Source: an uncultured archaeon
GTDB taxonomy: Archaea; Iainarchaeota; Iainarchaeia; Iainarchaeales; CSSED10-239
Assembly (NCBI GenBank): GCA_964463155.1
Contig: CAYXAY010000029.1
Span: 1 to 9,431, forward strand
Direction of reading: 5' to 3'
Length of the DNA: 9,431 nt
The notes beneath the pieces were generated by a model. It saw only the letters and a list, made by a program, of their open reading frames with translations. It was not told the origin of the DNA and made no database searches. A program made the position numbers and the translations under genes. This document shows positions 1,766 to 9,210 of the stretch, one piece after another (the first letter of the stretch is position 1; every line of letters begins with the position of its first letter).

Positions 1766-3847
1766 ATGAGTAACAATATTATACTTTTTTTAAAATTACT
1801 ATCAAACGTGGATTTAATGACCATTAAACAAATTATAAACAGAAAAGAAGAAAAAACTAACTATAATATTTATAAAATCAAATTAGCCTTGCTTAAGGCG
1901 CTTGATGCAATAGATAATCCAGACATAGATCTTGCAGATTATCTAACAAAAAAAATAGATAACACATTGACCACAGAATATTTTGAAAAAAATAAAATTC
2001 CTACAATAGACAACATACAAGACATTATTGAAGATGTTTTAATTAAAGAAGGACTAACCAAATTAGTAAAAGCTTATGTAATTTATAGAAAACAACACGA
2101 CGATATAAGAGAAATATCAAGTTTAATAGATAGTACAAATGCAGTTGAAAGTTACATTAATATTTCTGATTGGCAAGTTAAAGAAAACAGCAACATGGAT
2201 TATTCATTACAAGGTTTAAATAATTATCTTTCAACAAAAATAATCTCTGATTACTGGATAAAAAAGATATATCCTCAAGAAATAAGAGAAGCCCATGAAA
2301 AAAGACAAATACATTTGCACGATCTAAACACTCTTGGTCCATATTGTGTGGGTTGGGATCTCCAATTTGTTTTACAAAACGGTTTTAAGGGGGCCCCCGG
2401 AAAGATAGTAGCATCTCCGCCAAAACACCTTAACGTTGCATTAGGACAGATTGTAAATTTTATTTACACTCTGCAAGGAGAATCGGCAGGAGCGCAAGCA
2501 TTCAGCAATTTTGACACGCTTCTTTCACCATTCATTTATTATGACAAAATAGATTACAAAAGAATAAGAGCTGAATTGGAAACTTTTTTATATAATATGA
2601 ATGTACCTACAAGAACAGGTTATCAAACTCCATTTTCGAATATCACTTTAGATTTGACAATTCCTTTAACCCTAAAGGATCAACCAGTAATAATTGGAGG
2701 AAAACCACAAGACAAAACATATGGTGAATTTCAAAAAGAAATGGGTCTTTTTAACACCGCGTTGCTTGATGTTCTTTTAGAAGGAGACGCTTCAGGAAAT
2801 ATGTTTTCATTTCCAATACCAACAATTAATGTCACAAAAGATTTTGATTGGTCTAGCCCTCTTTCAGATAAATTAATAGAATTAACAATAAAATATGGAA
2901 CACCGTATTTTGCAAATTTTGTTAATTCAGATATGAAACCAGAAGACGCAAGAAGCATGTGCTGTAGATTAAGACTTGACAATAGAGAACTCCAAAAAAG
3001 AGGAGGAGGACTTTTTGGGTCTAACCCTTTAACAGGTTCAATTGGAGTTGTAACAATTAATCTTGCTCAAATAGGTTATTTAGCAAAAACAGAAGAAGAA
3101 TATTTTGAAACATTAGGACATTTAATGGACCTTTCAAGAAAATCATTAGACATAAAAAGAAAAATTGTTGAAAAATACACCGATGATGGACTATACCCTT
3201 ATTCTAAATACAATCTTAAGACTATAAAAGAAAGATTTGGAAATTATTGGAAAAATCATTTTTCAACTATAGGCCTTCTTGGCATGAACGAGTCTTGTCT
3301 TAATTTTTTAGGTGAGCCCATATATACAGAAAAAGGGAGGGCCTTTGCAAACAAAGTAATGGATTTTATGCGAGAAAAAATACAAAAATACCAAGAAGAT
3401 ACTCATACATTATATAATCTGGAAGCAACGCCAGGAGAAGGGACAACTTACAGATTTGCAACACATGACAAAAAGAAATATCCTTCCATACTTGTTGCAA
3501 ACGAAGAAAATTACCGCAATAAAGGGGTCCAACCATATTACACAAACTCTACTCAAATCCCAGTAAACTATACAAATGACGTTTTTGAAATACTTGATTT
3601 ACAAGACGAATTGCAATGCAAATACACTGGAGGCACAGTCATACATTTTTTTATAGGAGAAAAGAAACCATCAAAAGAAGCCATTAAGTCTTTAATAAAA
3701 AAAATCACTTTAAATTACAAATTGCCTTACTTTACATTTACTCCTACATTTTCGGTTTGCCCAAAGCACGGATATTTATTTGGAGAACACGAGTATTGTC
3801 CTAAGTGTGATGATGAAATAGGTTATAAAGGTGAAAAACATGAGTGA
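1766..3847 (+). CDS. nrdD: Anaerobic (class III) ribonucleoside-triphosphate reductase NrdD, main body without the glycyl-radical C-terminus
   Basis: An N-terminal ATP-cone-like segment starts at Met18 (MTIKQIINRKEEKTNYNIYKIKL...AYVIYRKQ). The active-site motif is SMCCRLRLD (Cys codons 2960-2965), followed by GGGLFGSNPLTGSIGVVTINL and YYTNSTQIP. The C-terminal Zn-ribbon is CPKH...CPKC. The ORF stops 12 residues after CPKC and never reaches the RVxGY glycyl-radical motif. The likely true start is the ATG at 1817. Confidence 0.9.
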   Translation: MSNNIILFLKLLSNVDLMTIKQIINRKEEKTNYNIYKIKLALLKALDAIDNPDIDLADYLTKKIDNTLTTEYFEKNKIPTIDNIQDIIEDVLIKEGLTKLVKAYVIYRKQHDDIREISSLIDSTNAVESYINISDWQVKENSNMDYSLQGLNNYLSTKIISDYWIKKIYPQEIREAHEKRQIHLHDLNTLGPYCVGWDLQFVLQNGFKGAPGKIVASPPKHLNVALGQIVNFIYTLQGESAGAQAFSNFDTLLSPFIYYDKIDYKRIRAELETFLYNMNVPTRTGYQTPFSNITLDLTIPLTLKDQPVIIGGKPQDKTYGEFQKEMGLFNTALLDVLLEGDASGNMFSFPIPTINVTKDFDWSSPLSDKLIELTIKYGTPYFANFVNSDMKPEDARSMCCRLRLDNRELQKRGGGLFGSNPLTGSIGVVTINLAQIGYLAKTEEEYFETLGHLMDLSRKSLDIKRKIVEKYTDDGLYPYSKYNLKTIKERFGNYWKNHFSTIGLLGMNESCLNFLGEPIYTEKGRAFANKVMDFMREKIQKYQEDTHTLYNLEATPGEGTTYRFATHDKKKYPSILVANEENYRNKGVQPYYTNSTQIPVNYTNDVFEILDLQDELQCKYTGGTVIHFFIGEKKPSKEAIKSLIKKITLNYKLPYFTFTPTFSVCPKHGYLFGEHEYCPKCDDEIGYKGEKHE

Positions 3848-3994: not shown

Positions 3995-4660
3995 ATGACG
4001 TTAAAGATAGGCGCATTTGAGAAATTAAGTACAATAGATTATCCAGATAAAGTTGCTTGTGTTATATTTTTCAAAGGCTGTAATTTTGCATGTGGATTTT
4101 GTTACAATAAACAACTAGTTGTCCCAGAGTATTTTAATGAAACAAAAGAGCATCTAGAAAACGAAATACATTATTTCTTGGACAAACGAAAAGGACTTAT
4201 CGACGCAGTTGTTTTAACAGGCGGAGAACCCACAATTTTCGGGGAGAGCCTTATTAAATTCATAAAAGAAATAAAATCAAAGAATTATTTAGTAAAACTA
4301 GACACTAACGGTTCTAATCCTTACATTCTAGAGAAAATTATCTCGCAAAAATTAGTTGACTACATAGCCATGGACATAAAAGACGAGTTTGATTATTATT
4401 ACAAATACACAAACGTACCAATAGAAAACATTAAAAAATCAATTGACATTTTAAAGTCAACAAAAATTCCCCACGAATTTAGAATAACAACACACCCTGA
4501 GCTTACAATTAAATCTTTTTATAATATATTAGATCTAGTCAATGGAGAAAAAACAGTTGTCCAAGATTTCGTAAATAAAAACACAATTAATGAATATAAA
4601 AAACCGCACACAATATACTCTAAATTATCCAAGACAGACAAGCGATATATTTTGAGATAA
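3995..4660 (+). CDS. nrdG: Anaerobic RNR activating enzyme NrdG (radical SAM)
   Basis: The CxxxCxxC cluster motif is CNFACGFC (4079-4102), preceded by STIDYPDKVACVIFFKG. The SAM-binding motif is VVLTGGEPT. At 221 aa, the size and position right after nrdD are typical. Confidence 0.9.
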   Translation: MTLKIGAFEKLSTIDYPDKVACVIFFKGCNFACGFCYNKQLVVPEYFNETKEHLENEIHYFLDKRKGLIDAVVLTGGEPTIFGESLIKFIKEIKSKNYLVKLDTNGSNPYILEKIISQKLVDYIAMDIKDEFDYYYKYTNVPIENIKKSIDILKSTKIPHEFRITTHPELTIKSFYNILDLVNGEKTVVQDFVNKNTINEYKKPHTIYSKLSKTDKRYILR

Positions 4661-4671
4661 AGGCGATTAAT

Positions 4672-6720
4672 ATGCCATTTGTTAACACAATAACTCACAA
4701 ATCAGGAGAAACCGAAGAATTCTCAAAGGAAAAAACCGCAATTGCTTTATTTGAAATAATGTGCAACATTGGAGAACCTAATCTGAATCTTGCTGAAAAA
4801 CTTGCCTTTCTAATATACGACAAAGTAAATGCAAAGTTTTCAAAAGAGATTTCCAAAGAAAAACTAGAAGAATTAATAAAAGAAACACTTCTAAAAGAAA
4901 ATCAAACTGAATTATTGCAAGCATATATCTTAAAAAGAAATAAACTAGAAACACCAACAAACGATTCTGAAATCAAAAAGCACATTTTAAAAGAAATACT
5001 GAATTTATCTGATTCAGATAATGTTTCAGCAACATTAATTTCAATAAATGCACTAATAAACAAACTTCAAAATAATCAATATGAAAAATTAAACAAAAAA
5101 ATATTTGATTATATAAGAGAAGGGGCATTTTATCCAAGTTTCACAACATTAAGAGAAATTGGACACAACAACCAAATAACCTCCGGTTATTCATTTAAAA
5201 TTAAGGACAACCTAGAAAGCATTTTTAATATTCTAGCAATATCAAGTAAAGCCCAAAAATTTGGAGCTACAGTATCAATAGACCTTTCAGAAGTAAGGTC
5301 TGAAAAAGACAAGGTAAAATCCATAAATAGAGATGCGTGCGGCCCAGTAAAAATCATTGATTTATTTGTGTCTGCTAAATCACTTATCGGTTACAATACA
5401 AATGCCTCCAACAATCTATTTTACATATCTATTGAACACCCTGATATCATACAAGTTATGAATTATTTTTCAATAAATAAAACAGATAATTTCGCAATCA
5501 TAGTTCCTGACAGATTTATGCAAGCATTACTAACCAATCAAGAATACACAATAGAAAACAATACAATAGAAAGAAGAATACAACCATCAACTTTATTTGA
5601 TTTTATTTCTTCCAAGATAACAACCGGAGAAAAAATAAATTTGATTTTTAAAGACACCATAGACAAGAAAAACCCGTTTATTAACAACTACAAAAACTAT
5701 GCTATATCTCCAATAGGTTTGCAACCTTGTTTTGAAAATAACACGTTTATTACTGGAACAATAGACATATCAATACTGATTAATACCATCGGCAAAACAA
5801 AAATATTTGACTGGGCAAAATTAAAAACCATAATCTGGGATTCTTTGGAGTTTTTGGACAATATGATAGATTTATCTGAACAAGTAGATGAAGAACACTC
5901 AAAAAACCTTAAAGAAACAAGACAAACATATCTTACAATTACTGGTTTTGCAACTGCATTATCCAAACTAAACATAGCTTATGATAGCGATGACGCAATT
6001 TATTTTGCAGATTCTTTATCAGATTACATTTCATTTTACACAAAACTTCGTTCAACAGAACTTGCTAAAAACAAAGGCCCATTCTTGAAATTTATTAAAA
6101 GCAAATACGAGCGATCTAATTTTTCTTTTGAAAAAACCACTATTCAAAGAACTTTATTTTCAACAGACCTTTCTGTCTCAAAAAAACTAAACAAAAACAT
6201 GCCAAATATAGATTGGATAGAACTTAAAAACAACATAAAAAAATACGGCTTAAGAAATGCCACCACTTTTTCAATAATATTTTCTGATTTTTACTCTATA
6301 GCAAACGAGACAAGCAATGCTATAGAACCAATCTGTTCTTACAAACCAATCTATTGGATAAACGGCTACAAATCAGAAAAGATTAACAAAGAGATATCTC
6401 TTCAGGTTCCTTACTTAAATAATAACTGGTCAGAAGAGGCGCTAGAATCAGCAATCCCTGATCACCTAAAATACAACATCCCGCTTGCAAAAACAATATC
6501 CTCGCGGTTTTTTATTAGATTACAATCCGTTTTTGAAAAAAACACCGACGGCACAGTAAATCTTAAAACCTATTTTACTGAAAACACCACAATACAAGAG
6601 ATTAAAGATTTAATAATTGAAAGCCACAAGATTGGAAACACTTGCTTTCTACCAGAAAAATTAAATCCCCACATAAAAGACTTTAATACCGAAAACAGAA
6701 AAGGAATGATGAGTCTATAG
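4672..6720 (+). CDS. ATP-cone plus class II (NrdJ-like) RNR-fold protein with substituted catalytic residues; predicted pseudoenzyme or regulatory paralogue
   Basis: The ATP-cone is ITHKSGETEEFSKEKTAIAL...LLQAYILKRNK (residues 1 to about 91). The RNR core motifs appear in the correct order: YPSFTTL...ITSGYSFKIKDNLESIF (versus PNSPTL...LSACFVxPVEDSxEGIF), DACGPVKII, IEHPDIIQVM...DNFAIIVPDRFMQAL, GEKINLIFKDTIDKKNP, ISPIGLQPCFENNTFITGTIDIS (versus [23 protein letters not shown]), and ETSNAIEP (versus sSGIEP). The start is 11 nt after the nrdG stop. Confidence 0.8.
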   Translation: MPFVNTITHKSGETEEFSKEKTAIALFEIMCNIGEPNLNLAEKLAFLIYDKVNAKFSKEISKEKLEELIKETLLKENQTELLQAYILKRNKLETPTNDSEIKKHILKEILNLSDSDNVSATLISINALINKLQNNQYEKLNKKIFDYIREGAFYPSFTTLREIGHNNQITSGYSFKIKDNLESIFNILAISSKAQKFGATVSIDLSEVRSEKDKVKSINRDACGPVKIIDLFVSAKSLIGYNTNASNNLFYISIEHPDIIQVMNYFSINKTDNFAIIVPDRFMQALLTNQEYTIENNTIERRIQPSTLFDFISSKITTGEKINLIFKDTIDKKNPFINNYKNYAISPIGLQPCFENNTFITGTIDISILINTIGKTKIFDWAKLKTIIWDSLEFLDNMIDLSEQVDEEHSKNLKETRQTYLTITGFATALSKLNIAYDSDDAIYFADSLSDYISFYTKLRSTELAKNKGPFLKFIKSKYERSNFSFEKTTIQRTLFSTDLSVSKKLNKNMPNIDWIELKNNIKKYGLRNATTFSIIFSDFYSIANETSNAIEPICSYKPIYWINGYKSEKINKEISLQVPYLNNNWSEEALESAIPDHLKYNIPLAKTISSRFFIRLQSVFEKNTDGTVNLKTYFTENTTIQEIKDLIIESHKIGNTCFLPEKLNPHIKDFNTENRKGMMSL

Positions 6721-6779
6721 AAGAAATGTGTATGAAATCAAAAGAAGATATAGAAAAAAGAATACAAGAAATAAAACCG

Positions 6780-6803
6780 TTTTTTGAGTAATTGACTTTT
6801 TTT
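6780..6803 (+). terminator. Oligo-T tracts (T6 at 6780-6785, T7 at 6797-6803), a likely archaeal-type terminator for the nrd cluster
   Basis: These are the first T-runs of 6 nt or more after the stop at 6720. Further T-runs lie at 6817-6821 and 6837-6843. Confidence 0.4.
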
Positions 6804-6982
6804 CTTGCATTAATTGTTTTTACAGTAATTAATATATTTTTTTAAACACCAAGAAATCTAAAATACACGACGGTGGTTCTTTTCACAGGTTTTGTAATTT
6901 CTTTGATTCTCCAGAAACCTTACCTTTACAAGACATTTAAACCAATACTTCTAAACAACAAAAGATTGGAAGAACTAGCAAG

Positions 6983-6997
6983 AAAAAGCCTAAAAAA
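6983..6997 (-). terminator. Oligo-T tracts (T6 then T5 on the minus strand) just downstream of the cdc48 stop
   Basis: After the TAA, the minus strand reads ATTGTTTC TTTTTT AGGC TTTTT. Confidence 0.4.
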
Positions 6998-7005
6998 GAA
7001 ACAAT

Positions 7006-9210
7006 TTATCTAATAGCATAACCCTTTTCTTTTTCTTCAGGACTTTCTTTTTTTATCTTTAATTTTTCTATAGCTTTTAAGAACGCATCCTTACTTACCA
7101 CAGGCCGCGTCTCTGTTTTCTTTTCCTTAACCCCGTTTTCCGATTCTTCAATAATTAGTCTGATTCTTGAAAGTCCAGCTTCTCTGCAGATTGCTTCAAT
7201 CTCTGCTCCTGAAAAACCATCTGTTTCTTTTGCAAGTTCTTTAGCATTGACTTTTTTATCTACACTCATTTTACCAATATAAACCTCAAATATCTTTTCT
7301 CTTGTAAATTCCTCAGGCAAAGGAACCAAAAGAAGTTTTTCAAATCTTCCTGGCCTTAAAAAAGCAGGATCTATAAGATCAGGACGATTAGTTGCTCCAA
7401 TAACAATAATGTCTTTAAGATTTGATATGCCATCTATTTCTGTAAGCAATTGAGCTATAACTGTGTTTTTTGCTTCACTTGTTTCAAATCCTGTTCTTCC
7501 AGAAGTGATTGAATCAATCTCGTCAATAAAAACAATGCTTGGTGCAAGTTGCCTTGCTTTCTTAAAAATATCTCTTATTCTCTTTTCAGATTCTCCCACC
7601 CATTTACTAAATATTTCTGGGCCTTTAATAGAAATAAAATTTGCATTTGTTTCTGTTGCAACAGCTTTAGCAAGCAATGTTTTTCCAGTTCCTGGAGGTC
7701 CATATAATAAAACCCCGCGCGGAGCAGTAATTCCTACATTTTCAAATAATTTTTTGTGTTTCATTGGCCATTCAATCATTTCTTTTAATTGTTGTTTAGT
7801 ATCTTCAAGTCCACCTATATCTTCCCATTTTACATTAGGTATTTGAACAAGCACTTCCCTAATAGCCGAAGGCTCAACAACATTTAATGCATCCAAAAAA
7901 TCCTGTCTTGTAATAACAAGAGCGTCCATTATTTCTTTTGAAAGTTCTAAACCCGTTTCTTTGTTAATCTTTGGCATCAATCTCTTTAAGGCCTTGATTG
8001 CTGCCTCTTTACAAAGAGCAGAGACGTCTGCTCCAGAAAAGCCATTTGTAAATTCCAAAAGTTCATCAATCTTAACATCTTCAGTTAATGGCATTCCTCT
8101 AGTGTGCACCAAAAATATTTCTTTTCTTGCGTCTTTTGTAGGAATATTAATCTCAATTTCTCTATCAAATCTTCCTGGCCTTCTAAGAGCGGGGTCAATA
8201 GATTCAGGAATATTTGTTGCGCCAATAACAACAACATCCCCTCTAGCTTTTAATCCATCCATTAATGTCAAAAGTTGAGCAACAATTCTTTTCTCTGTTT
8301 CTCCATGTATATTTTCTCTTCTTGGAGCAATAGCGTCAATCTCATCAATAAAAATAATTGCAGGCGCGTTCTTTTCTGCTTCTGAAAAAATATTTCTTAA
8401 GTTTTCCTCTGATTTGCCATATACTCCACTAACAATCTCTGGGCCGTTTATTATTGTAAAATTAGAATCTGTCTCTGAAGCAACAGCCTTAGCAAGCAAT
8501 GTTTTTCCAGTTCCTGGAGGTCCATAAAGTAAAATCCCTTTAGGTGGAGTTATTCCAAGTTTTTTAAAAACTTCTGGTCTTCTGATAGGGAGTTCAACCA
8601 TTTCTCTAATACTTTCTATTTCTTTTTTAAGTCCCCCAATATCATCATAAGTAATACCATATTTACTTGTCTCAATTGGTTTTTCAGAAATTGTTAATTT
8701 TGTGTTTGCAGTAATCTTAACAGGCCCCTTTGGCAAAGCTTTGGTTACTGTTAAGGAAAGATCTCTTGATTCTTCATTAATAAATATTTTAATTCCTCTT
8801 ACAACAACAACATTTCCCTCAAGTATGTTTTTGTTAATAATCCTATCATGAATATAACTTATAATATCGTTTCTTTTAAGATCAGGAATCTCAACAGGCG
8901 GAGCAAGAGTTATTGATTGAGCTATTTGGCAGTTTATCTTTTCAATAAACACATCTTCATCAATCCTAGAATTAGAGTTGAATCTAATATTACCATCAAT
9001 TCTTATGATATTAAGTCCAGTGTCCGCAACCTTTCCTCTAATTGCATAGGCAATCACAAACTTATCAATTTTAGTATTGCTAATTTTAATAGTGTCACCA
9101 GTAGTTAAACCCATTCTTTCAAATATAATAGGATCAATCTTTGCTATGTCTTTACCTACATCATAGATTTCTGCATCTCTAACAGTAAGTCTCGCTTTTT
9201 CTACAGCCAT
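7006..9210 (-). CDS. cdc48: Cdc48/VAT/p97-family double-ring AAA+ ATPase
   Basis: The 734-aa protein has a Cdc48-type N domain (ARLTVRDAE...GDTIKISN...IRIDGNIRFN). It has two AAA modules, each with Walker A GPPGTGKTLLAKAV, Walker B FIDEID, and an Arg-finger region (ATNIPESIDPALRRPGRFDREI and ATNRPDLIDPAFLRPGRFEKLL). The D2 pore loop is SKWVGESE. Confidence 0.95.
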   Translation of the reverse strand: MAVEKARLTVRDAEIYDVGKDIAKIDPIIFERMGLTTGDTIKISNTKIDKFVIAYAIRGKVADTGLNIIRIDGNIRFNSNSRIDEDVFIEKINCQIAQSITLAPPVEIPDLKRNDIISYIHDRIINKNILEGNVVVVRGIKIFINEESRDLSLTVTKALPKGPVKITANTKLTISEKPIETSKYGITYDDIGGLKKEIESIREMVELPIRRPEVFKKLGITPPKGILLYGPPGTGKTLLAKAVASETDSNFTIINGPEIVSGVYGKSEENLRNIFSEAEKNAPAIIFIDEIDAIAPRRENIHGETEKRIVAQLLTLMDGLKARGDVVVIGATNIPESIDPALRRPGRFDREIEINIPTKDARKEIFLVHTRGMPLTEDVKIDELLEFTNGFSGADVSALCKEAAIKALKRLMPKINKETGLELSKEIMDALVITRQDFLDALNVVEPSAIREVLVQIPNVKWEDIGGLEDTKQQLKEMIEWPMKHKKLFENVGITAPRGVLLYGPPGTGKTLLAKAVATETNANFISIKGPEIFSKWVGESEKRIRDIFKKARQLAPSIVFIDEIDSITSGRTGFETSEAKNTVIAQLLTEIDGISNLKDIIVIGATNRPDLIDPAFLRPGRFEKLLLVPLPEEFTREKIFEVYIGKMSVDKKVNAKELAKETDGFSGAEIEAICREAGLSRIRLIIEESENGVKEKKTETRPVVSKDAFLKAIEKLKIKKESPEEKEKGYAIR

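Follow-up and report, generated by a model that had tools for sequence, protein, structure and literature searches.

The stretch of archaeal DNA considered here (9,431 nucleotides, hereafter the 9.4-kb window, with a G+C content of about 30%) carries the genes of a class III ribonucleotide reductase (RNR), namely nrdD, a mini open reading frame (ORF) for the glycyl-radical segment of NrdD (nrdD-Gly) and the activase gene nrdG, followed by a gene for a 682-amino-acid protein that resembles the large subunit of class II RNRs (NrdJ) and is referred to here as the pseudo-RNR. The pseudo-RNR is almost certainly a catalytically dead RNR homologue that is maintained by selection, and throughout its lineage its gene takes the final place in the nrdD, nrdD-Gly, nrdG operon. 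An earlier note on this DNA had placed the gene 11 nucleotides (nt) past nrdG, which is confirmed both by the ORF call and by the position of the nrdG stop codon (TAA, 4658-4660). The genes of the window and the relevant segments of the pseudo-RNR are collected in Table 1.

Table 1. Genes of the window and segments of the pseudo-RNR, in window order.
Feature	Position	Strand	Description
PRC-barrel gene and XerC/D-like recombinase gene	first genes in window order	minus	
nrdD, large subunit	1817-3847	plus	ATP-cone and class III RNR barrel; 980 bits to NF006126
nrdD-Gly, mini-ORF of 47 amino acids	3840-3983	plus	NrdD glycyl-radical segment, …CEVYSRVVGY…
nrdG	3995-4660	plus	radical S-adenosylmethionine (radical-SAM) activase of NrdD; TIGR02495, 180 bits against a cut-off of 131
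Pseudo-RNR gene, 682 amino acids	4672-6720	plus	ends in TAG; ORF call, Pfam, alignments, predicted fold
ATP-cone, residues 7-91	4690-4944	plus	PF03477, 35.9 bits against a cut-off of 25.8
Gly172	5185-5187	plus	aligned with the redox residue Cys134 of T. maritima NrdJ; G, S or T in the family
RNR ten-stranded barrel domain, residues 173-655	5188-6636	plus	PF02867 (Ribonuc_red_lgC), 157.5 bits against a cut-off of 23.9, E 6e-46
Helix alpha-A of the former specificity site	5206-5259	plus	D179 (codon 5206-5208), K196 (codon 5257-5259)
Loop 1 equivalent, RSEKDKVKSINRDACGP, residues 209-225	5296-5346	plus	begins with R209; holds invariant Cys223
Finger-loop equivalent, SPIGLQPCFENNTF, residues 346-359	5707-5748	plus	phmmer, profile, MAFFT
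IIFSDFYS, residues 535-542	6274-6297	plus	replaces the substrate-phosphate loop IAPTG[TS]IS; D539 and S542 invariant
CDC48-type AAA ATPase gene	downstream of 6720, last gene in window order		convergent to the pseudo-RNR gene

A protein search with the pseudo-RNR returned 23 clusters at 45-100% identity, after which identity fell to about 24% for true NrdJs, and these 23 members represent the family discussed below. With regard to domain content, all 23 members match the PF02867 barrel, and the N-terminal helical domain PF00317 gave no Pfam match in the pseudo-RNR. The best NCBIfam models are NrdJ equivalogs, which reach about 180 bits and stay under their cut-offs of 400-960 (TIGR02504, 178 bits against a cut-off of 400; NF006417, 181 bits against 961). 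The NrdJ of Thermotoga maritima (1xje) was the top match in the PDB by sequence (phmmer with the single sequence, E 5e-23), and a profile of the 23 family sequences matched the same protein with E 8e-46 and in an identical register. Furthermore, an AlphaFold2 model was built from a 33-sequence alignment, with a mean predicted local distance difference test score (pLDDT) of 84.7, a predicted template modelling score (pTM) of 0.79 and a pLDDT of 90-93 in the finger-loop region. Since Foldseek places T. maritima NrdJ structures first among the PDB matches of this model (1xje, E 4e-34, template modelling score of 0.65-0.74) and class I R1 proteins next, the predicted fold is an alpha barrel of the RNR type with a cone in front of it. 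The pseudo-RNR belongs to the superfamily of class I/II RNR large subunits, and the homology to NrdJ-type class II RNRs asserted in the earlier note is borne out by Pfam, by phmmer, by the family profile and by the structural comparison that had been proposed there.

The catalytic positions were mapped with phmmer and with the 23-sequence profile, both against T. maritima NrdJ, and with a MAFFT alignment that included 18 true NrdJs, the functional roles of the T. maritima residues being those given in PMC4728125 (Table 4). The position of the thiyl radical residue, Cys322, is occupied by Ile348 (Ile or Val in 25 of 25 sequences), and those of Asn320 and Glu324, the two residues that hold the 3'-OH of the substrate, by Ser346, which is invariant in the family, and Leu350 (Leu, Phe, Tyr, Met or Asn in the family). 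One member of the redox pair, Cys333, is replaced by Phe359 (Phe or Leu in the family) and the other by Gly172, and the position of the loop-2 residue Arg207 is taken by Ala245 (Ala, Thr, Ser or Asn in the family). In the MAFFT alignment, the LSACF motif of the true NrdJs becomes ITSGY, their canonical finger-loop segment becomes ISPIGLQPCFENNTFITGT, and the reading of the substrate-phosphate loop as IIFSDFYS is upheld. Moreover, the C-terminus of the family (…KGLMSL) contains no Cys, whereas the aligned NrdJs end in CxxC or in a terminal Cys.

The five catalytic replacements that had been read from a gapless alignment (at residues 172, 346, 348, 350 and 359) are accordingly recovered by phmmer, profile and MAFFT, with non-catalytic residues at every one of the five positions in the profile alignment, and the codon coordinates given for two of them (5185-5187 and 5713-5715) and the accompanying peptide strings proved correct upon translation and arithmetic. 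The earlier note had added the caveat that a gapped alignment might bring Cys353 to the radical position. This caveat falls, and the candidate is ruled out, because Cys is present there in just six of the 23 members (Val in 12, Ile in four and Ser in one), so that it cannot be a conserved radical residue. With the thiyl Cys, the redox Cys pair, the Asn/Glu pair, the loop-2 Arg and the C-terminal Cys tail all gone, ribonucleotide reduction by the pseudo-RNR would, judging from its sequence, be impossible.

The same losses extend to the whole family. About 25 cluster representatives, with 39-77% identity to the pseudo-RNR, have identical catalytic losses, and the canonical motifs NPCGE or CNLGS, whose presence in orthologues would have pointed to a local error in the window, were found in none of these homologues. 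The substitutions recur in about 25 independent assemblies (NCBI, JGI, ENA and Logan), which, together with the intact reading frames, rules out an error of sequencing or assembly. An exhaustive profile search of 1.84 billion representatives recovered only three full-length clusters at 50% identity (P0020, P0023 and P0091), the last of which adds a distant branch (646 amino acids, about 39% identity), as well as two further fragments (P0092 and P0095). The matches that followed were normal NrdJs, and a wider family was ruled out. No family members were found in IMG/VR, where only distant true RNRs at 20-25% identity were matched, and a viral origin was ruled out on this ground; the possibility of a defence system was dropped, as PADLOC gave no match for the pseudo-RNR. 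The carriers are probably DPANN-type archaea of the Diapherotrites, and a neighbouring NrdD cluster is named Candidatus Diapherotrites (DPANN) in one source. Family members are currently found in databases under the names "hypothetical", "ATP cone domain-containing protein" and "ribonucleoside-diphosphate reductase alpha chain". The last of these is wrong, and such a label could make metabolic reconstructions credit genomes with an RNR activity that is not theirs. As a separate observation, two metagenomic proteins that ranked directly after the family in the profile search, P0093 (1600 amino acids) and P0094 (1351 amino acids), are tandem double NrdJs in which both modules carry canonical catalytic motifs and the C-terminus has a Cys-rich, Zn-finger-like tail, an unusual fused double class II RNR.

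Synteny with nrdD and nrdG was found in every locus read. The order is always nrdD, a mini-ORF of 45-48 amino acids, nrdG, the pseudo-RNR gene and a convergent CDC48 gene (L001, a contig of 429 kb; L002-L004; L005-L007; L017), with a gap between nrdG and the pseudo-RNR gene of 11-19 nt (window, L001, L002, L005, L014 and L017). The window genes were also found in the same order in L008, L009 and L011 by tblastn with the window proteins, and the short contig L014 holds the 3' end of nrdG, the pseudo-RNR gene and CDC48. In L001, L002 and L005, whose contigs are long enough to show the surroundings, one flank comprises MutS, Trm56, TFIIE-alpha, the PRC-barrel gene and Xer, and the other comprises TopA, AsnC and RFC. 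Since gene order and flanks are conserved across loci, the pseudo-RNR gene is chromosomal and vertically inherited.

That such a long open frame implies selection, as had been argued from the window, is borne out by these loci. None of the seven copies read as DNA has an internal stop codon. In the only pair with unsaturated divergence (L001 and L008), the non-synonymous rate (dN) is 0.057 and the synonymous rate (dS) 0.80, which gives a ratio (omega) of 0.07, compared with 0.05 for CDC48 in the same pair. The other pairwise dS values were saturated or undefined, and divergence relative to NrdG, NrdD and CDC48 was used besides. The dN of the pseudo-RNR tracks that of NrdG, and the amino-acid identities to the window copy in six genomes are 75, 75, 72, 67, 55 and 45% for the pseudo-RNR, 75, 71, 70, 69, 57 and 59% for NrdG and 70-89% for NrdD. 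The pseudo-RNR is under strong purifying selection and changes at about the pace of its functional neighbour NrdG.

The conservation pattern within the protein indicates which parts of the former enzyme are being maintained. In T. maritima NrdJ, the deoxyribonucleoside triphosphate (dNTP) that acts as specificity effector is anchored by Asp141, Lys158 and Arg171, together with backbone amides of loop 1 (PMC4728125, Table 4). In the register shared by phmmer and the profile, these three residues align with D179, K196 and R209 of the pseudo-RNR, which are invariant in 25 sequences spanning down to 39% identity, a set in which 99 of the 682 columns are invariant. The loop 1 equivalent contains many Lys and Arg residues and equals its NrdJ counterpart in length (17 residues). 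No other segment of the protein is as highly conserved: its mean top-residue frequency is 0.94 versus 0.77 overall, and 10 of its 17 positions are invariant in the 23-member alignment. In these alignments, the specificity-site anchors and the matching length of loop 1 are retained in the pseudo-RNR; the invariance of the NrdJ effector-anchor triad and the rank of loop 1 as the most conserved segment are newly seen here. Very high conservation is also found in helices 1-2 of the ATP-cone and in residues 369-525. Loop 2 has lost its Arg, is moderately conserved and has a pLDDT of 66 at residues 241-250.

The Pfam ATP-cone is recognisable in 22 of the 23 members (E <= 0.01), and its conservation (0.81) lies above the protein average. 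The canonical K-R-D-G of the cone reads H-K-S-G in the window copy; across the family the first position varies between H, N and Q, and at the second position of the K-R pair 18 of 23 members have K or R. Family-wide conservation is seen at E15, K19, K21, Y85, K/R88, K89 and K91, two of which, E15 and K21, we take to correspond to positions in Escherichia coli NrdA. The family-conserved residues were matched by eye to the nucleotide contacts described for an NrdD cone, which are Lys7, Arg8, Tyr83, Arg87 and Arg91 (PMC11226230). The claim of an intact ATP-cone made at the outset thus stands in so far as the domain is recognisable, but the cone is not demonstrably intact, given its H-K-S-G reading and variable first position. 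By similarity, the cones closest to it belong to archaeal NrdJs, which also have in common with the pseudo-RNR an insert of the form DWxxLrxxIKKYG(I/L)RN. The similarity of the cones and the common insert point to an archaeal, ATP-cone-bearing class II NrdJ as the likely ancestor.

With regard to the class III RNR encoded in the same operon, NrdD is split between two ORFs. The large ORF stops just past the Zn site (…YCPKCDDEIGYKGEKHE, followed by the stop codon) and has no glycyl-radical motif, and the mini-ORF lies in another frame, its ATG overlapping the nrdD stop codon (ATGAGTGA). A mini-ORF was called in all related loci (including L001, L002, L005, L015 and L017). Because the two ORFs lie 20-50 nt apart or overlap in relatives, the split nrdD is a true two-gene arrangement that involves no frameshift. 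Among the 120 best NrdD matches (from candidate phyla radiation (CPR) bacteria and DPANN archaea), about 100 likewise end ahead of the Gly motif, and the nearest outgroup NrdD operon, the one outgroup operon read (L015; NrdD at 61% identity), has a split NrdD and no pseudo-RNR. A functional tie between the pseudo-RNR and the NrdD split is weakened by both observations. A stand-alone glycyl-radical subunit of a class III RNR would be similar to GrcA/YfiD of pyruvate formate-lyase; a search of the literature on split NrdD gave nothing relevant.

Several other features of these NrdDs were observed. The start of the NrdD cone is non-canonical in the pseudo-RNR lineage (QIINRKEEK, ILNRDGEK and VFNRNNIKK, from a comparison of window positions 1817-1870 with P0260-P0358). 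It follows the pattern N-R-[KND]-[ENG], in which N always replaces the K of K-R-D-G, whereas outgroup NrdDs of about 60% identity have the canonical IRKRDG. This change co-varies with the presence of the pseudo-RNR, a weak correspondence that amounts to a single evolutionary event and proves little. The finger loop of NrdD carries a double-Cys MCCR motif (…RSMCCRLRLD…), which the RNR phylogeny preprint ties to re-reduction of the disulfide or thioredoxin type instead of formate; no thioredoxin or NrdH gene lies within the operon. Additionally, NrdD is interrupted in several relatives by a 318-amino-acid insertion at …PTRVGYQ|TPFS… (L002 6161-9145; L008, L009 and L005), which is absent from the window copy, L001 and L011. 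The insertion begins with Cys, ends in …GN and is followed by Thr, and is in this respect intein-like; the precomputed Pfam matches held no intein flag for it.

The mechanical call of the nrdD ORF begins at 1766, but the start used by homologues is the Met codon at 1817 (MTIKQIINRK). Some 57 nt upstream of this codon, at 1753-1760, stands a TATA-like TTTATAAA, which fits a candidate archaeal promoter of the nrdD operon. A translation check found no in-frame TGA in any window gene, from which it follows that the standard genetic code applies to the window. A public gene call of the contig (P0239, 707 amino acids) translates the nrdD TGA at 3845-3847 as Trp (…EKHEWKYKRKKNQMWSIF), and for the same reason this readthrough looks like a gene-calling artefact, apparently through the use of an alternative genetic code. 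Between the pseudo-RNR and CDC48 genes (window 6721-7005) there are only short ORFs (6726-6791 and 6873-7013), and the T-rich runs at 6779-6808, 3' of the pseudo-RNR gene, could be a candidate terminator. One or two ORFs of 92-94 amino acids lie in this interval in relatives (L001 12074-12352; L002 12066-12636), one of which has a weak match to a two-transmembrane (2TM) protein.

What these sequences suggest about function is that the pseudo-RNR may serve the class III RNR (NrdD and/or NrdG) as a nucleotide-sensing accessory, that is, as a stand-alone allosteric sensor subunit. This is our preferred reading, held tentatively and with a likelihood slightly short of an even chance. The pseudo-RNR would retain the allosteric half of an RNR: its former specificity site, made up of D179, K196, R209 and a basic loop 1 of 17 residues, would still bind a dNTP, probably at a homodimer interface, and its N-terminal ATP-cone would probably still bind ATP or dATP. 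Nucleotide occupancy would alter the conformation or the oligomeric state of the pseudo-RNR, and this change would, through a protein-protein contact, adjust the co-expressed class III RNR (NrdD together with the separate glycyl-radical peptide, and/or NrdG) in its activity, its activation or its stability. The more elaborate version, a detached allosteric module in which a dead alpha subunit of class II would sense both the dNTP and the ATP/dATP pools at its specificity site and cone and signal in trans to the class III RNR, must be regarded as doubtful. The invariance of the effector-anchor triad and the strong conservation of loop 1 give indirect support to a sensor role.

Several considerations weigh against this role. 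The Asp and the Arg of the effector site are common to all RNRs, and their retention could be for the sake of the fold. The first basic residue of the K-R pair in the cone is variable, and the cone may have degenerated into an interaction module; a degenerate inner cone has been reported for NrdA of Pseudomonas aeruginosa, as cited in the RNR phylogeny preprint. Loop 2, the usual relay of the effector signal, lacks its Arg, is conserved only moderately and is modelled with low confidence. Furthermore, the dimers of class II and class III RNRs differ in build, and we know of no precedent for the docking of a class II-type protein on NrdD. The gene order speaks for co-expression and not for physical partnership, and a co-resident true NrdJ might be the real partner instead of NrdD.

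Alternatively, the pseudo-RNR could act independently of nucleotides as an assembly factor or scaffold, with the dead barrel stabilising or chaperoning the split NrdD or NrdG, in a manner comparable to yeast Rnr4 (see below). The conserved position in the operon is in keeping with such a role, as is the splitting of NrdD in this lineage, which leaves a loose glycyl-radical peptide in need of delivery, and the highly conserved cone helices 1-2 and residues 369-525 could mark protein interfaces. However, split NrdDs are common in CPR bacteria and DPANN archaea, and the outgroup operon L015 indicates that the split does not need a pseudo-RNR. A scaffold would moreover leave unexplained why the effector triad and loop 1 are the most constrained parts of the protein, and we consider this explanation unlikely.

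It is quite unlikely that the barrel has been neofunctionalised into an enzyme with a new, non-RNR activity, possibly on a nucleotide. The strong purifying selection would fit an enzyme, and polar residues that are family-invariant and absent from RNRs (C223, S346, Q351, D365, D539 and S542, the candidate residues for such an activity) lie in or near the former active-site loops. The S-D-x-x-S that stands in place of the phosphate loop may also preserve a phosphate-binding helix N-terminus. Conversely, bulky hydrophobic residues (I348, F359, F537, F540 and Y541) occupy positions that line the active site in RNRs, no cofactor-binding motif is recognisable, Pfam and NCBIfam gave no match to other enzyme families and PADLOC none at all, and the neighbourhood shows no obvious chemistry in need of an enzyme.

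The two remaining explanations have a negligible probability. An RNR that still works by way of another radical residue, for example Cys353, or a normal NrdJ altered by errors of sequencing or assembly, has in its favour a superficial resemblance of QPCFE (351-355) to NPCGE, against which stand the poor conservation of Cys353, the missing redox, Asn/Glu and C-terminal residues, NCBIfam NrdJ scores far under the cut-offs and the repetition of the substitutions in independent assemblies. A decaying pseudogene still open by chance would account for the loss of every catalytic residue, but it is practically excluded because the protein diverges about as fast as NrdG, and also by the omega of about 0.07, the intact frames of all copies read as DNA, full-length homologues down to 39% identity and the persistence of a 2-kb ORF in DNA of such low G+C content.

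The known protein closest to the pseudo-RNR is the dimeric, adenosylcobalamin-dependent (B12-dependent) class II NrdJ of T. maritima (PDB 1xje and 3o0n), which is the best match in sequence and in fold and with which it shares the ten-stranded barrel, the skeleton of the finger loop (P, G, Q, P, G), an HPD motif, the effector residues equivalent to Asp141, Lys158 and Arg171 and the length of loop 1. The N-terminal ATP-cone and the DWxxLrxxIKKYG(I/L)RN insert are shared with archaeal NrdJs. Unlike these enzymes, the pseudo-RNR lacks the complete set of catalytic residues (thiyl Cys, redox Cys pair, Asn/Glu pair, loop-2 Arg and C-terminal Cys tail) and the APTG loop, and its N-terminal helical domain (PF00317) is short of about 35 residues. 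A curated bacterial family, NF005401 (PRK06948, 'ribonucleotide reductase-like protein'), gave a weak partial match to residues 190-476. Its score of 74 bits against a cut-off of 906 sets it apart as another family. A search of the literature found no description of a prokaryotic pseudo-RNR, and inactive RNR homologues are not discussed in those parts of the RNR phylogeny preprint that were available.

With regard to regulation, NrdR is described in PMC9110341 as a non-catalytic ATP-cone protein that senses ATP/dATP and controls RNR supply. However, NrdR is a protein of about 150 amino acids with a DNA-binding Zn-ribbon (two CxxC), whereas the pseudo-RNR has 682 amino acids with an RNR body of 590 amino acids, and no Zn-ribbon, CxxC pair ahead of the cone or other DNA-binding module was found in it. 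The comparison, which had been drawn in the earlier note, is an analogy only, and any control by the pseudo-RNR would be post-translational. According to the same source, most archaea are without NrdR (PMC9110341). If the pseudo-RNR senses nucleotides and controls NrdD, it would represent a new route for the regulation of dNTP supply in archaea.

Among the large subunits of RNRs, the betaherpesvirus R1 homologues (M45 of murine cytomegalovirus, UL45 of human cytomegalovirus and U28 of human herpesvirus 6B) are likewise pseudoenzymes, reported to have lost enzymatic activity and kept a non-catalytic role (PMC11772975, PMC13506858). They differ from the pseudo-RNR in being viral and of class Ia descent, in acting on host immune signalling (through amyloids of the RIP homotypic interaction motif, RHIM, or through NF-kB) and in having no operon link to a working RNR, and the two have unrelated origins. 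A cellular example is yeast Rnr4, a dead homologue of the beta subunit that is needed to assemble active Rnr2. Rnr4 resembles the pseudo-RNR as a cellular pseudoenzyme of the RNR family and is an obligatory partner of an active RNR. It is, however, a small, ferritin-like beta subunit that forms a heterodimer with its active paralogue, whereas the pseudo-RNR is an alpha-type barrel encoded beside an RNR of another class. To our knowledge, the inactive RNR homologues known so far are either viral, as betaherpesvirus R1, or of the beta type, as yeast Rnr4. RNRs are classic examples of allosteric enzymes, and a cellular alpha-type pseudo-RNR under strong selection within the operon of another RNR class would offer a natural experiment in which allosteric sites appear to outlive the active site. 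If it does function as a detached allosteric module, the pseudo-RNR would be the first cellular RNR pseudoenzyme of that kind, with the control of dNTPs physically separate from catalysis in reduced archaeal genomes, and would provide a compact system for the study of RNR effector sites independently of catalysis.

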